Sequence record: MW269952.1
Reading direction: 5' to 3' (one strand)
Source of the DNA: Escherichia phage P479
DNA length: 64,000 nucleotides
The notes beneath the pieces are model-generated. The model was not told the DNA's origin. It made no database searches and saw only the letters and a program-made list of their open reading frames with translations. Below are positions 6,034-11,390 of this stretch, piece by piece. Numbering within the stretch: position 1 is the first letter of the stretch; each line of letters starts with the position of its first letter. The position numbers were made by a program, and so were the translations under genes.

Positions 6034-6045
6034 TATTTATAAATA
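6034..6045. promoter_or_regulatory. overlapping divergent late promoters (TATTTATAAATA) for genes 51 and 26
   Basis: TATAAATA on plus strand at 6038-6045 and on minus strand at 6034-6041, 18-25 nt from the two divergent start codons. Confidence 0.45.
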
Positions 6046-7076: not shown

Positions 7077-7112
7077 TGCTTTAATTTTATGGCTGTATAA
7101 TGGTTCTAGACC
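7077..7112 (+). promoter_or_regulatory. middle-type promoter (MotA box TGCTTTA, 11-nt spacer, TATAAT) with conserved GGTTCTAGACCC downstream module
   Basis: TGCTTTA 7077-7083, TATAAT 7095-7100, immediately upstream of uvsY; same module recurs at 13121, 22008 and inverted at 48229. Confidence 0.5.
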
Positions 7113-7129
7113 CTTACATTGGATACATT

Positions 7130-7564
7130 ATGAAAACAGAGATTGAATATAAGTTAGAAGTCTTTCAGGATGAGTTGGATGCAGATTTAAAAATTGATGG
7201 TACACAACTTCAATATGAAACACAAAACAACGTTTTGTTGCATAGCAAATGGTTGAGATTGTATACTAACTGCAAGAAAGAAATAATGCGTCTTGAGATT
7301 CAGAAGAAAACTGCACTGAAAAAACGACTAGACCATTATACAGGAAGGGGTGACCCAGGGGAAGAAGTATGCATGGATGTATACGAGAAGTCAGAATTGA
7401 AAACAGTCATGGCCGCAGATTCAAGCGTGTTGAAGATTGATACTTCAATTCAGTATTGGGCACTGCTCCAGGACTTCTGTAGCGCTGCATTAGATGGTGT
7501 TAAGTCACGAAGTTTCGCACTTAAACATATGTTAGAAATAAGACAATTTGAGGCGGGCAAGTAA
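7130..7564 (+). CDS. uvsY: recombination mediator UvsY
   Basis: Alignable along whole length to T4 UvsY (LQYE..NNV.L.SKWL, MRLEIQKK.ALK.RLD.Y.GRGD, IKHMLEIRQFEAGK); start taken at internal ATG 7130 downstream of the promoter -10. Confidence 0.9.
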   Translation: MKTEIEYKLEVFQDELDADLKIDGTQLQYETQNNVLLHSKWLRLYTNCKKEIMRLEIQKKTALKKRLDHYTGRGDPGEEVCMDVYEKSELKTVMAADSSVLKIDTSIQYWALLQDFCSAALDGVKSRSFALKHMLEIRQFEAGK

Positions 7565-7797
7565 TGCGATATTCTATCGACGATGCGTTTAACCAAGACG
7601 AAGAGTTCGAAGAAGAAATTAAGTATATGATGAAGGAATGGAAATTGAATCGTGCAGATATTCGTATCTGCGCTGACCACCCTTGTGGTGAAGATGTTAT
7701 CTATGTTAAAGGTAAATTTGCGGGATACATCGATGATGCGTTCTATTCTCACAATATGGGAATAGATACTGGTATGAGATACTTTAAGGAAAATTAA
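7564..7797 (+). CDS. small conserved protein, uvsY.-1-like
   Basis: 77-aa ORF with ATGA overlap to uvsY stop, position as in T4. Confidence 0.55.
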   Translation: MRYSIDDAFNQDEEFEEEIKYMMKEWKLNRADIRICADHPCGEDVIYVKGKFAGYIDDAFYSHNMGIDTGMRYFKEN

Positions 7798-7908
7798 ATG
7801 AAAAATATTAGTAAGATTCTCGACGAGATGGTTATCTCTGCAAACCGAATAACCGAAATTGTTAATGAGATGAAAGCTCGTGCTGCTATTATGAAGAACA
7901 CTAAATAG
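7798..7908 (+). CDS. hypothetical small protein (36 aa)
   Basis: Short ORF tightly packed between neighbours; not in ORF track (below length cutoff). Confidence 0.25.
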   Translation: MKNISKILDEMVISANRITEIVNEMKARAAIMKNTK

Positions 7909-7936
7909 ATATGTAAGTTTAACTGAGGAGACAATC

Positions 7937-8104
7937 ATGTCAGATAAGATTTGTGTTGTCTGTAAAACTCCAATCGATTCTGCATTGGTTGTGGATACAG
8001 ACCAAGGTCCGGTGCATCCGGGCGCCTGTTATAATTATGTTCAGAGTTTGCCAGTTACGGAAAATACAGAAGAGCAACTGAACGAGACCCAACTTTTAAT
8101 TTAG
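7937..8104 (+). CDS. small Cys-containing protein, uvsY.-2-like (possible zinc ribbon)
   Basis: 55-aa ORF MSDKICVVCKTPID...HPGACYNY with CxxC plus distal Cys; GAGGAG upstream. Confidence 0.45.
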   Translation: MSDKICVVCKTPIDSALVVDTDQGPVHPGACYNYVQSLPVTENTEEQLNETQLLI

Positions 8105-8161
8105 CTAGTGTTGTTAACCATTTTTGGTTTTGCCCCTTCCTTTTGGTTGGGGCCTTTTTAT

Positions 8162-8389
8162 TTAGAAATCTTCGTCTTCTTCGTCGTCCATATCCTCAAG
8201 CTCGGCGCGTTTACCGGCAAGAGCATCACGAACACTGATATCATCGGAATCTTTCAGTTCAGCTTCTTTGCTGCGTTTCTTATAATAGCCTTCCAACTCC
8301 TTCAGACCGTCCATGGTCTGACAGGAACCAATCTTAGCCATAAAGCCTTCAATTGATGCTTCGTACATAATTTCTTCGAAGGATTTCAT
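8162..8389 (-). CDS. uvsW.1: UvsW.1 small acidic protein
   Basis: 75 aa, acidic C-terminus, lies downstream of uvsW as in T4 but separated from it here by an endonuclease gene. Confidence 0.7.
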   Translation of the reverse strand: MKSFEEIMYEASIEGFMAKIGSCQTMDGLKELEGYYKKRSKEAELKDSDDISVRDALAGKRAELEDMDDEEDEDF

Positions 8390-9174
8390 TATATTTCCAC
8401 CTGTTTAATAAATTTATCGACCATTTTCCCATAGTGTACTTTAGGATATCCAGCTTCGACAGCGATTTTGGTAAATCCCGTTACTTTAGGTTTATTGTTA
8501 TTTATCCAAAGTAAAAATAACTCGTCATATAATAGCCAATGCGGATATTTTTTGGCATGAGTCTCTTTCCAATTTTTGGAATGGTCTTCACTTCTAAAAG
8601 ATTTTTTAACACCTTTATTTGCCTTTCCCGCCTTAGAACATGTCGCATAATCACCCGCCTTGACAGGAGTAAATCCTTTCATAGCTTTAGATTTTTTGTC
8701 ACGCGTTTCCTGAGACTGTTTGGACCCGGTGTTTTTTGCCCAGGCCTTTTCCAAAGCTTTTAATTTCGCGGGAGTGAATCCGACTTTTCGCATGGCGTCA
8801 ATATGTATTTGGAGACGTTCTGCGGACCATTCATATGAACCATGATTATTACCCATCAAAGCTTCACTAATTAAATGTGATGCCTTTTCTTTAAGCAGTG
8901 TAATGGTTCTTGAACTAACTTCTTTTAGGCGTCGACCGTTTGTCATACCAAATGCTGCGCGCCATAATTTACCACCTTGTGCTTTTGCTAAAATAACATG
9001 AGCTAATATATGTTCACGAACTGTTAAAGCAACTAAATTATTAGGATGGTTGGAACCTCCAACCGACTTTGGTATAATATGATGTATTTCAATTCGACAA
9101 GGAGCAGAGGTCTTTGTCCAACCCCTTGTCCTTGCATTTGAAATTAAATCATCGTAAATTTTTTGATAATTCAT
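8389..9174 (-). CDS. HNH homing endonuclease (freestanding, mob-like)
   Basis: Motif IHHIIPKSVGGSNHPNNLVALTVREHILAH (HNH); lysine-rich C-terminal DNA-binding tail; start and stop overlap the flanking genes. Confidence 0.85.
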   Translation of the reverse strand: MNYQKIYDDLISNARTRGWTKTSAPCRIEIHHIIPKSVGGSNHPNNLVALTVREHILAHVILAKAQGGKLWRAAFGMTNGRRLKEVSSRTITLLKEKASHLISEALMGNNHGSYEWSAERLQIHIDAMRKVGFTPAKLKALEKAWAKNTGSKQSQETRDKKSKAMKGFTPVKAGDYATCSKAGKANKGVKKSFRSEDHSKNWKETHAKKYPHWLLYDELFLLWINNNKPKVTGFTKIAVEAGYPKVHYGKMVDKFIKQVEI

Positions 9175-10670
9175 AGTTCCACATGTTTCACTACATAGTT
9201 AAAACGTTCATCAGCATATCGTTGAATACGTTCAAGGCCGTGTTTAAGAAGATAGTTCAAATGAACATATTTCTTTTTAGCGTTTGCTGATTTAGGACGG
9301 ACCCCCATGTCGTCAACGATATCCCAAACATTTGCTTGCGATTTGGATGCGTGTTTTCGAAGTACACGACCGATTGTTTGAAGGACAATTACCTTTGATT
9401 TTACACCGTGGGCGAAAATAATATGATGGAGGTTTTTAACGGAAATCCCCGTCGAGAATACACCGTATGAAGCTACAACAATAATTCCCTTTCCATTCTC
9501 TGCCATGACCTTCAGAGCATTACGGGTTTCGGTATCGACTTCCCCAGAAACATAATACACTTTTTCATGACCAGCTTCTTTAAGCATTTCAAACATCGAT
9601 TTGCCGTGCTCGATATTCTTAAACATCAAAAAGACGTTTTCATCTTTTTTAGAAAGCTTGAGTGCAAGGTTTGTTACCCATTTATTTCGGCGTGTAGCTT
9701 TTGTAATTACCTTGATTTCATCCTGATAAGTTTTACCTTTCATTTTAACGGTGAATTCATCAGGGTAACGAAGGAAAATACTATTTATTTTAAGGTCAGT
9801 AACCTGACCATCTTCCATCAATTTCGATGTTGATACTGGTTTAAAGATATCACCAAACAGACCCATATATTGCATAAGGTTGGCTTTGCCATCACGGAGT
9901 GAACCTGACAGACCAAATTTAAACATGCAATTCGTAAGGCCTTCGATAACCGTCGAAATCGATTTACCTGTAGCCATGTGGCATTCGTCATTCATAAACT
10001 GGCCAAACTGTTCAAACCATTCTTTAGGTTGTTTTACAGCCGTCTGATAAGTCGATACATAAATCATCGCATCAGAATCGCGTTTAGTCCCAGAACGAAT
10101 ACCCAGACAAGCTGCACGAGGGAAAAGCCGATAATCAACAAAGTCATTAATCATCTGGTCAACAAGGGCCGTTGTAGGAACAAGGATAAGCACCTTGCCT
10201 TCATAGTTCTCGAGATAATATCGCGCCAGAAGCGCCTGGATGAGGCTTTTACCTGCAGACGTAGGTAAGTTCAGAATCTTTCTTCTGTTGACCAGACCAT
10301 CATATACGGCGTCAGATTGATACCAATGGGGCGTTATCTTGGTATTGCCTGAATAGATTTCTTTTGACTCGACCCATTTGTCGAATTCTTCGCGAGAGAT
10401 TTCTTCTTTCTCGGTGATTTGCGGGTCAATCCAGAATGAATAACCAAACTGGTCAGCGAACTTTTTAATTTGATTAACCAAACCGTATGGTAATTTACGA
10501 TTGTAATCCAGGAGGCGGATTCGTCCGTCCCAAACTCCCTGCTTGAACTTTGGATTGAAGCGATAGTTTTCAGCTTCGAAGCTGAAGTAATCACGGAGTT
10601 CGTAGAAGATTCCATCTTCACATTCAACATGCACGTGACTAAAATTTAGAAAGTTGATTTTAATATCCAT
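9171..10670 (-). CDS. uvsW: UvsW RNA-DNA/DNA-DNA helicase
   Basis: Near-collinear match to T4 UvsW from MDIKINF...; Walker A LPTSAGKS, DECH box; start placed at internal ATG 10670. Confidence 0.92.
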   Translation of the reverse strand: MDIKINFLNFSHVHVECEDGIFYELRDYFSFEAENYRFNPKFKQGVWDGRIRLLDYNRKLPYGLVNQIKKFADQFGYSFWIDPQITEKEEISREEFDKWVESKEIYSGNTKITPHWYQSDAVYDGLVNRRKILNLPTSAGKSLIQALLARYYLENYEGKVLILVPTTALVDQMINDFVDYRLFPRAACLGIRSGTKRDSDAMIYVSTYQTAVKQPKEWFEQFGQFMNDECHMATGKSISTVIEGLTNCMFKFGLSGSLRDGKANLMQYMGLFGDIFKPVSTSKLMEDGQVTDLKINSIFLRYPDEFTVKMKGKTYQDEIKVITKATRRNKWVTNLALKLSKKDENVFLMFKNIEHGKSMFEMLKEAGHEKVYYVSGEVDTETRNALKVMAENGKGIIVVASYGVFSTGISVKNLHHIIFAHGVKSKVIVLQTIGRVLRKHASKSQANVWDIVDDMGVRPKSANAKKKYVHLNYLLKHGLERIQRYADERFNYVVKHVEL

Positions 10671-10698
10671 GATGATTCCAAGGTAATAAATATATCTA

Positions 10699-10706
10699 TA
10701 TTTATA
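10699..10706 (-). promoter_or_regulatory. late promoter TATAAATA upstream of uvsW
   Basis: Plus-strand TATTTATA about 29 nt upstream of the uvsW start. Confidence 0.4.
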
Positions 10707-10724
10707 CACTAACCGAGGTTCATC

Positions 10725-11390
10725 ATGATTGACAAGAACTACATTGAGGAAATTCGTGTCCTCGAGAAAAAAGAAGCCAAAGAAAAATTAGCCGAATATG
10801 CAGCATCACTTGGTGTTGATGTTAAGAAAACAAAAACCTTTGATAATATGTTGGCTGACCTGGAAGCAGGACTTAAAGCATTTGCTGACATGCCTATGCC
10901 TGATGATAATGAAGGCCTGAGCATCACTGACCTTATCGATGCCGATGATGAATTGTCAGGTGCTAAATTTGATGGTGATGAGTCAGCTAAAGAAGAAGCT
11001 AAGCTCTTATTTGATGCTCCAACCGAAGCAAAGGTTGAAGTTGTTGAAATCGAAGAACCAGTTGTTGTGGTTGAAGAAGATGCTCCTTTTGTCGAAGAAA
11101 AGTTCGAAGCTGCTGTTGCTAAGGTTATCGAATCTGAAAAACCCGTATTTGCTCTGCCAAAAAACTTTAGCCCGAATTTAATGCTTATTGGTAAGAACCC
11201 TGGATTCTGCACTGTTCCATGGTGGATTTATCAGTGGATTGCCGAGACTCCAGATTGGAAAGAACGTCCAACTGCTTTCCCACATCCCACCGCACACCAA
11301 ACTCTATTCAGTTTGATTTATTACATCAATCGTAATGGGTCTGTTCTAGTACGAGAAACTCGTAACTCATCTTTTGTCACTTTAAAATAA
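10725..11390 (+). CDS. inh: Inh, inhibitor of prohead protease (hoc-adjacent)
   Basis: 221 aa (T4 Inh 226 aa), acidic central region, immediately upstream of hoc as in T4. Confidence 0.7.
   Translation: MIDKNYIEEIRVLEKKEAKEKLAEYAASLGVDVKKTKTFDNMLADLEAGLKAFADMPMPDDNEGLSITDLIDADDELSGAKFDGDESAKEEAKLLFDAPTEAKVEVVEIEEPVVVVEEDAPFVEEKFEAAVAKVIESEKPVFALPKNFSPNLMLIGKNPGFCTVPWWIYQWIAETPDWKERPTAFPHPTAHQTLFSLIYYINRNGSVLVRETRNSSFVTLK

Follow-up and report, generated by a model that had tools for sequence, protein, structure and literature searches.

A probable Mob-type HNH homing endonuclease gene set into the final codons of uvsW in Escherichia phage P479, and the uvsW tract that appears to travel with it

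Results

An HNH gene chained to uvsW and uvsW.1

The stretch of 64,000 nucleotides (nt) of Escherichia phage P479 analysed here (record MW269952.1), called the window below, belongs by its sequence to a Gaprivervirus-like phage and carries, at the 3' end of the helicase gene uvsW, an open reading frame (ORF) of 261 amino acids (aa) for a putative HNH homing endonuclease, here termed HNH-A. The initial annotation of this DNA had already placed an HNH gene of that length between uvsW and the small gene uvsW.1, a call borne out by the ORF coordinates and by matches to Pfam HNH and PHROG 655.

10670..9171, minus strand: uvsW helicase gene, 499 aa from MDIKINF (ORF call; Pfam UvsW_N with an expect value (E) of 1e-39, ResIII and Helicase_C)
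9174..8389, minus strand: HNH-A, putative free-standing homing endonuclease ORF, 261 aa (Pfam HNH, PHROG 655)
8389..8162, minus strand: uvsW.1, 75 aa (PF11637, E 7e-25)

The ATG of HNH-A (9174..9172) overlaps the TGA of uvsW (9173..9171) as ATGA, just as annotated initially. Its TAA (8391..8389) had been described as abutting the uvsW.1 start (8389..8387); the two codons are indeed adjacent, but have one base in common, as TAATG. That uvsW.1 directly follows uvsW in T4, as also claimed, agrees with the literature; the T4 RefSeq record NC_000866.4 (2678-4441) still shows uvsW as a 587-aa ORF fused with uvsW.1, an old and known sequencing error.

An insertion six codons inside uvsW

Relatives were collected by megablast of positions 8100-10750 against 50,697 phage records. 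The site is empty in 20 of the 26 sequenced Gaprivervirus relatives, among them RZ, VR20, VR7, VR25 and VR26, in which the stop of uvsW and the start of uvsW.1 form the overlap TAATG. When compared with close relatives the gene is thus, as had been proposed, an insertion. The empty allele has the sequence ...TATGTA ATTAAACAGGTGGAAATATAATG AAATCC, with uvsW ending in IKQVEI* and with AGGTGG as the Shine-Dalgarno sequence of uvsW.1, and the 3' end of the HNH-A ORF in the window reads ...GATAAATTT ATTAAACAGGTGGAAATATAATG, a base-for-base match to this native uvsW tail. Two versions of the tail are therefore distinguished in the window:

8389..8409, minus strand: native uvsW tail ATTAAACAGGTGGAAATATAA (IKQVEI*), now the 3' end of the HNH-A ORF (identical to the uvsW end of empty relatives)
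9171..9191, minus strand: recoded substitute uvsW tail GTGAAACATGTGGAACTATGA (VKHVEL*), its stop overlapping the HNH-A start (comparison with empty alleles)

The native version, ATTAAACAGGTGGAAATATAA, contains the uvsW.1 Shine-Dalgarno AGGTGG, which in the substitute, GTGAAACATGTGGAACTATGA, is weakened by a change of AGG to ATG. Because the native tail ends the HNH-A ORF and uvsW ends in the recoded copy, the element is, on this comparison, inserted in frame six codons inside uvsW, with the native tail serving as the C-terminus of the nuclease. The phrase 'between uvsW and uvsW.1' is thus right for the order of the ORFs but not for the insertion point, which lies inside the last ~6 codons of uvsW. 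The native junction is preserved in the window from ATTAAACAGG onwards, together with all of uvsW.1. Nor does the insertion separate co-expressed genes, as had been supposed, since the uvsW.1 Shine-Dalgarno and the TAATG are intact and the three ORFs are chained behind a single late promoter.

The same architecture recurs elsewhere. A second endonuclease, HNH-B, which is found at the site in other phages, likewise ends in the native tail, ATT AAA CAG GTG GAA ATA TAA in Gaprivervirus and ATG AAA CAG GTG GAT TTA TGA in Dhakavirus. HNH-A itself ends in the native uvsW tail in two further, metagenomic loci (L120 and L125), the tail being kept behind HNH-A in L124 as well, and in Acinetobacter phages the HNH gene reads into the GGGACC...GGTCCC terminator hairpin that closes uvsW in the empty relative. 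A repeat finder detects the tail copies around HNH-B as direct repeats of 22 nt (95% identity) in SP18 and of 24 nt (75%) in UP19; the pair in the window has diverged to 16/22 identical positions, under the seed length of the program.

All HNH starts examined have a weak start codon or a weakened Shine-Dalgarno sequence: the start codon is TTG in Bp7, EnC07, SP18 and UP19, and AbTZA1 has no Shine-Dalgarno. By analogy, such starts would fit the low, coupled translation described for T4 endonuclease genes. An RNA hairpin hiding the ribosome-binding site, as in mobE of Aeh1, was sought for HNH-A, and the region from -60 to +40 folds no better than its shuffles (z -0.37).

The endonuclease as the cause of the split between uvsW and uvsW.1 was considered and rejected, as the two genes are separate in all empty alleles. 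All 68 UvsW.1 homologues stand alone (43-96 aa), and a profile search of 1.84 billion representatives returned no helicase of ~500-600 aa with a C-terminal UvsW.1 domain; judged from these sequences, the split is older than the element.

A foreign tract at the 3' end of uvsW

In an alignment of the window with eight Gapriverviruses, uvsW nt 1-1254 differ from the empty phage RZ by 16 mismatches (98.7% identity), nt 1255-1500 by 51 mismatches in 246 (79.3%; Fisher p 9e-29), and the first 400 nt counted from the uvsW.1 ATG by one. The divergent stretch extends from nt 1260-1266 to the native tail.

9171..9411, minus strand: foreign, presumably co-converted uvsW 3' tract, nt 1260-1500 (79% identity to RZ in the alignment)

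The best match to this tract in the 50,697 phage records, that of Yersinia phage P8, reaches 88.7%, so that the donor lineage is unsampled. Between window and P8 the tract is 87% and HNH-A 87.5% identical, against 97% for the upstream part of uvsW; tract and gene, being equally diverged, therefore act as one unit older than the backbone that surrounds them. In Dhakavirus, Bp7, which carries HNH-A, differs from the empty locus L028 by 21 mismatches in 966 alignment columns and then, from the same codon, by 66 in 238, and from empty Dhakaviruses by 0-1 mismatches per 50 nt in uvsW.1. Carriers of HNH-B have a shorter tract, nt ~1332-1473, which is likewise one-sided. In the Acinetobacter phages, a background divergence of ~20-25% along the whole gene (AbTZA1 versus L027) masks any tract boundary. 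As an observation apart, the Bp7 record (L005, 1001-2504) divides uvsW into two annotated fragments; the gene exceeds that of relatives by 7 nt and has a cluster of mismatches at nt ~120-240, an irregularity which could be a frameshift or a sequencing error.

The sharp breaks in identity near nt 1260 in the natural isolates P479 and Bp7 argue that flanking DNA was co-converted with the endonuclease gene. What moved would be larger than the ORF and comprise ~240 base pairs (bp) of uvsW 3' coding sequence, the recoded six-codon tail and HNH-A, and the alignments show such a unit as having apparently entered an RZ/VR20-like Gaprivervirus backbone by gene conversion. Its junctions, as read from the same alignments, lie near uvsW nt 1260 on the left and, on the right, in frame six codons before the original uvsW stop, for which reason the nuclease finishes on the native tail and the ribosome-binding site and start of uvsW.1 are untouched.

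The endonuclease

The match of HNH-A to Pfam HNH (PF01844) is narrow, at 22.9 bits (E 9e-5) where the gathering score is 21.4, and that to PHROG 655, 'homing endonuclease', is strong (E 1.2e-45). Along its full length, HNH-A is ~32-35% identical to annotated mobE and mobD genes of related phages (tblastn). The catalytic motif quoted initially, HHIIPKSVGGSNHPNNLVALTVREHILAH, is present in the translation, and an alignment of 20 homologues has E29, H31, H32, N46, H55 and H59 invariant.

8998..9090, minus strand: HNH catalytic motif, residues 29-59 (family alignment)

The motif region is predicted by AlphaFold2 as strands 28-32 and 47-51 followed by helix 52-66, with a predicted local distance difference test score (pLDDT) of ~86-92; residues 166-193 are modelled as disordered and the C-terminal ~60 residues as a confident helical domain. 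Between window and P8 the ORF differs at 98 nucleotides with a ratio of nonsynonymous to synonymous substitution (dN/dS) of 0.12, which indicates that HNH-A is under purifying selection, and a copy 99% identical, with the same flanks, was found in an independent metagenome sequencing run. In the Acinetobacter phages Maestro, Morttis and AB-Navy71 the gene is broken into pieces, which fits the usual decay phase of homing elements.

A PDB sequence search with HNH-A gave no solved homing endonuclease and no I-HmuI, the matches being Cas8-HNH and McrA HNH motifs at E 0.085 or above, and no NUMOD match is significant, with NUMOD3 at E 3.6 and 8 bits against a cut-off of 20.4. Location in a group I intron was rejected, as the ORF overlaps both neighbours and leaves no room for a ribozyme, and Rfam has no match in 8000-10800; HNH-A is, as far as the sequence tells, a free-standing gene outside any intron or intein. 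A scan of the IMG/VR metagenomes with the HNH-A alignment used back-translated patterns that were too generic; the 80 loci retained were all distant paralogues (28-55% over the nuclease domain) and contributed nothing to the allele survey.

The window has a second Mob-type HNH ORF at 47519-48193 on the plus strand (224 aa; PHROG 655, E 4e-56), which overlaps the 3' end of an upstream ORF resembling a DNA end protector (46692-47537) by 19 nt and is followed by an ORF of the tail tube family (48219-48878). The paralogy initially proposed between this ORF and HNH-A is real (37% over 110 aa, E 4e-17, both in PHROG 655), but is confined to the nuclease domain at the N-terminus. In this domain the ORF at 47519-48193 has a nearer relative in HNH-B of SP18 (50% over 107 aa) than in the endonuclease at uvsW (37%).

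Two lineages at one site

The six occupied sites among the 26 Gaprivervirus relatives are divided unequally. One, in Yersinia phage P8, holds HNH-A in the same arrangement as in the window (93.5% identity over the full length; 89.7% aa identity of the nuclease), and the other five, in SP18, UPEC01, DK-13, TH40 and pEC-M719-6WT.2, have flanks of 95-97% identity and a different insert of ~690 bp, HNH-B. This is a 231-aa ORF that starts from a TTG overlapping the uvsW TGA and begins with LNYQKIYDDLI...SHHIIPECMGG; it belongs to PHROG 655 (E 7e-57) and has, in SP18, two NUMOD3 motifs (E 7e-19). HNH-A and HNH-B have in common only their first ~65 residues, at 52% identity, and their DNA-binding parts are unrelated. 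Presence and absence are polymorphic at the same uvsW site in Dhakavirus too, and in both genera the two lineages alternate at the uvsW tail. Overlapping uvsW by 4 nt, HNH-A occurs in Gaprivervirus, Dhakavirus, Karamvirus, Acinetobacter, Aeromonas and metagenomic phages, with uvsW.1 downstream or without it.

The database start of HNH-B is placed 32 codons late in SP18 (L002, 1791-2486, minus strand) and UPEC01 (L033, 1790-2485, minus strand); annotation from an internal ATG (199 aa) produces a false gap of 92 nt after uvsW, and the full ORF of 231 aa includes the HNH motif. The labels differ as well, 'group I intron endonuclease' being used in UPEC01 and a comparison with a chlorella virus protein in SP18.

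Some side observations concern uvsW.1 and its surroundings. Acinetobacter-type phages and two metagenomic lineages (L007, L121, L123, L124) have no uvsW.1 after uvsW or the HNH gene, the next genes lying convergently on the opposite strand; not all uvsW-bearing Straboviridae therefore possess uvsW.1. About 10 metagenomic proteins of 260-301 aa (P0132-P0142, P0144) have an N-terminal UvsW.1 domain (PF11637, E 1e-17 to 1e-23), and the remainder of one of them is weakly cytidylyltransferase-like, which may hint at the function of UvsW.1; the database label 'DNA helicase' for uvsW.1 is an annotation error. The uvsY.-1 region between uvsY.-2 and uvsY (window ~7100-7940) is absent in VR20, VR7 and VR25, which show blocks of 100% mismatch when the right flank is aligned, and present in the window, SP18, UPEC01 and RZ; the P8 record stops around this region.

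Substitutions in UvsW linked to the endonucleases

A scan of the final 285 nt of uvsW covered 10 HNH-A, 3 HNH-B and 19 empty alleles, which are phylogenetically non-independent. Just five nucleotide columns hold a base that is nearly fixed in the empty alleles and differs in those with HNH-A. They account for the changes of Pro422 to Gly (nt 1264-65), of Ala474 to Leu, Cys, Ser or Met (nt 1420-21) and of Ala478 to Gly (nt 1433), and all lie 47-216 nt upstream of the insertion point. With HNH-B, the linked changes are Trp449 to Phe (nt 1346-47), Ala478 to Gly (nt 1433) and Lys489 to Arg (nt 1466-67).

9405..9407, minus strand: UvsW codon 422, GGT (Gly) versus CCN (Pro) in empty alleles; first HNH-A-linked difference, at the left edge of the tract (alignment)
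9237..9251, minus strand: UvsW codons 474-478, L-L-K-H-G, in which L474 and G478 replace A474 and A478 of empty alleles (alignment); a candidate recognition or immunity region

Gly422 is found in 9/10 HNH-A alleles, from Gaprivervirus, Dhakavirus, Karamvirus, Acinetobacter phages and metagenomic lineages, and Pro422 in 18/19 empty ones; the contrast holds within at least four groups (window and P8 versus RZ, Bp7 versus JS98, AbTZA1 versus L027, L125 versus L023). A long invariant stretch that might betray the target was sought in the empty alleles, but no run of 8 or more bases is invariant across genera, so that the enzyme must tolerate third-position variation.

The backbone of phage VR7 (L035) resembles that of VR26 (25 mismatches in nt 1-1263, 2 in 400 nt downstream), and VR7 has a full HNH-B-type patch at nt 1333-1479 (F449, G478, R489) with no HNH gene. 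The allele looks like a scar, either of exact loss between the direct repeats or of a conversion halted short of the gene; in the latter case, the break would have had to occur at a distance upstream from the junction. P8 combines A-type with B-type markers and the window has the B-type Arg489, a mixture which suggests successive occupancy of one allele by both lineages.

Transcription signals and gene order

10699..10706, minus strand: T4-type late promoter TATAAATA, just upstream of uvsW (motif search)
8132..8153, no strand: hairpin GCCCCAACCAAAAGGAAGGGGC, between the converging uvsW.1 and uvsY.-2 (folding z -2.8)

The motif TATAAATA has 19 matches across the window against 5.25 expected. 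The copy at 10699-10706 is the sole T4-type late promoter within 8100-10750, none being found inside uvsW or the HNH-A ORF, and sigma-70-like and terminator-like matches inside the locus are no more frequent than chance predicts; this promoter is presumed to be the source of a uvsW-HNH-A-uvsW.1 transcript. At the position of the hairpin, a conserved bidirectional terminator has been described for T4-like phages. The order of genes around the locus is that of T4, with inh and hoc on one side and uvsY.-2, uvsY.-1, uvsY, 25, 51 and 26 on the other; 54 nt separate inh from uvsW, and segE is absent there. At 6034-6045, two back-to-back TATAAATA motifs on opposite strands lie between divergent ORFs resembling genes 26 and 51.

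Discussion

The anatomy, the tract and the distribution together make it probable that the 261-aa ORF is a free-standing Mob-type HNH homing endonuclease gene, which entered with ~240 bp of uvsW by gene conversion and whose target lies upstream, in uvsW. Transcribed together with uvsW and uvsW.1 from the late promoter upstream of uvsW, HNH-A would be translated at a low level through coupling to the termination of uvsW. In a mixed infection, it would nick or cut the HNH-less uvsW of a related phage within the last ~240 bp, and repair from the HNH-bearing genome would then copy tract and gene. A target within these ~240 bp seems more probable than one at the uvsW/uvsW.1 junction, because the tract is one-sided in two genera, the linked substitutions lie upstream and MobE of T4 nicks away from its own insertion site. 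Candidates are the codons for N-Y-A-L-K-H-A (nt ~1415-1435), which carry two of the A-linked changes, one of them common to HNH-B, or those for H-P-V at the edge of the tract (nt ~1260). The carrier allele would be protected by some of the linked changes P422G, A474L and A478G, others hitch-hiking or compensating within UvsW, and the second Mob-type lineage, HNH-B, would compete for the same site.

Several observations weigh against this reading. The AlphaFold2 model of HNH-A is of medium confidence overall (pLDDT 75.5), and a Foldseek search of the whole model against the PDB gave no significant match, with only weak hits for the HNH domain, to Cas8-HNH and the Gme nicking HNH (E 0.7-3, probability at most 0.89). 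The left boundary of the tract is known as intervals (nt 1207-1260 in the window, 1225-1264 in P8, 935-1264 in Bp7), and the 'same boundary' in these three phages rests on the first informative site. HNH-A identity, 76% with Dhakavirus and 55% with Acinetobacter phages, roughly tracks the divergence of the phages and also fits long vertical residence combined with losses. The association of substitutions and endonuclease, on which the non-independence of the alleles weighs, has exceptions in both directions, as L121 and PVA23 carry HNH-A yet retain P422, and T4 uvsW has G422/L474/G478 (HG..NYLLKHG) without an HNH gene there. The linked substitutions are, moreover, up to 170 nt apart, a spread too wide for one recognition site, and at least one of them must therefore be hitch-hiking or compensatory.

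That the enzyme instead recognises and cuts the uninterrupted uvsW/uvsW.1 junction, the insertion protecting the carrier by splitting the site, follows the classical rule of intron- and intein-encoded homing endonucleases and would agree with an insertion point that is codon-identical in several genera; the degeneration of the left tail copy in the window to 16/22 could then mean removal of a half-site. We consider this unlikely. The native junction is intact in the carrier from ATTAAACAGG to the end of uvsW.1, and SP18 has both tail copies nearly perfect (22 nt, 95%). A break at the junction should convert both sides, but in two genera the tract covers ~240 bp on the uvsW side and nothing on the uvsW.1 side. 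MobE, SegG and SegE cut at a distance from their own genes. Acinetobacter phages, like L121 and L123, have the same HNH gene after uvsW but no uvsW.1 and hence no junction, which therefore cannot be the general target of the family.

Two further explanations appear more improbable still, the slighter chance being about equal for both. HNH-A could be an accessory gene long resident in the uvsW operon and inherited vertically, perhaps domesticated as a nuclease that cooperates with the helicase, which no longer homes and was lost from most relatives by repeat-mediated deletion: it keeps the same position in two subfamilies, with a divergence roughly parallel to that of the phages, its purifying selection is strong (dN/dS 0.12), the flanking direct repeats could mediate precise loss and VR7 resembles the product. 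Vertical descent is hard to reconcile, however, with the alignments: on either side of a patch of 1 kb the backbone is 98.7-100% identical to that of empty relatives, and the patch itself is 13-21% diverged from all known sequences, the mark of a recent import. Against it stand also the alternation of two unrelated HNH lineages at one site within one genus, the fragmented copies in Maestro, Morttis and AB-Navy71, and the membership of PHROG 655, the T4 Mob family, for which homing has been demonstrated. Alternatively, the ORF could be an inactive relic that homed in the past, no longer cuts and is kept because its removal would disturb the expression of uvsW and uvsW.1. Many homing endonuclease genes of T4 are defunct, I-TevIII for example, and HNH-A has a weak Shine-Dalgarno and no promoter of its own; yet it is full length with all catalytic residues intact, has a dN/dS of 0.12 over 98 substitutions relative to P8, and exists as a 99% identical copy in an independent metagenome.

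The homing endonuclease reading draws on systems known from T4. MobE, encoded between nrdA and nrdB, is promoterless, with a start codon coupled to the upstream stop (UAAUGA in T4), and nicks nrdB at nt 122-126, over 120 nt away from its own insertion site; co-conversion and immunity polymorphisms are established for SegE, SegF, SegG and MobE. HNH-A resembles MobE in its membership of PHROG 655 and in its layout, an HNH domain at the N-terminus with a variable region behind it, in having no promoter of its own and a start overlapping the upstream stop (ATGA), and in its sporadic occurrence among relatives with co-converted flanking DNA, and a nick inside the neighbouring gene would match its one-sided tract. 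It differs in sequence, at only ~32-35% identity to annotated mobE genes, and in its neighbour, uvsW instead of nrdA and nrdB. Furthermore, mobE is intergenic, whereas HNH-A sits inside the last codons of uvsW and reuses the native tail as its C-terminus, and neither an internal terminator nor a hairpin sequestering the ribosome-binding site, both of which were looked for, accompanies HNH-A. SegE of T4 is likewise a free-standing homing endonuclease adjoining uvsW, which is its target gene, but is of the GIY-YIG family and lies between inh and uvsW, at the 5' end, in contrast to the 3' location of HNH-A.

SegH and Hef are reported to replace mobC and mobE in T4 relatives. Different endonucleases fill one slot there, as do HNH-A and HNH-B at the uvsW tail, although both occupants of this tail are Mob-type HNH enzymes (~52% identity over the first 65 residues). 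In the 'genes in pieces', mobE in nrdA of Aeh1 and mobA in gene 39/60 of T4, an HNH gene also lies inside a coding sequence whose function survives; HNH-A, unlike these, displaces six codons that are replaced by a carried copy, and leaves UvsW unsplit. With HNH nicking enzymes of the I-HmuI type it shares an N-terminal HNH followed by an extended DNA-binding region, HNH-B having two NUMOD3 motifs, but HNH-A lacks a significant match to NUMOD, to the sequence of a solved endonuclease or in Foldseek.

HNH-A is thus an ordinary kind of phage parasite with an unusually clear footprint, a tidy and testable case without surprise. Database annotations already name such ORFs 'homing endonuclease' or 'Mob-like HNH', and no description of an endonuclease at the 3' end of uvsW, of a substitute tail, of two competing lineages or of linked UvsW substitutions was found in the searchable literature. 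The locus adds to the T4-type free-standing homing endonucleases a well-defined site with two competing occupants, many empty alleles and at least one apparent scar, and as close relatives infect E. coli, it is easy to test by crosses. In practical terms, the 3' part of uvsW should not be trusted as a phylogenetic marker in Gaprivervirus and Dhakavirus, and annotation errors are exposed in the start of HNH-B (SP18, UPEC01), the label of uvsW.1 and the fused uvsW of T4 RefSeq.

A farther-reaching interpretation, which is offered tentatively and with more doubt than confidence, is that the mobile unit is a cassette which, besides the endonuclease, brings along a 3' end to replace that of the host's helicase gene. 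The linked changes at otherwise invariant residues, P422G, A474L and A478G with HNH-A and W449F, A478G and K489R with HNH-B, would then represent immunity and compensation, the two lineages would contest the same six codons, and uvsW of VR7, perhaps also that of T4, would be empty but resistant, as scars of past occupancy. If the linked substitutions are indeed immunity and compensation, a selfish nuclease would be driving amino acid change at invariant helicase positions near motif VI, and the family would be a source of short, sequence-tolerant HNH enzymes of mapped specificity. Should the cassette interpretation hold, the element would have remodelled, in two phage subfamilies, the amino acid sequence of a helicase important for repair.

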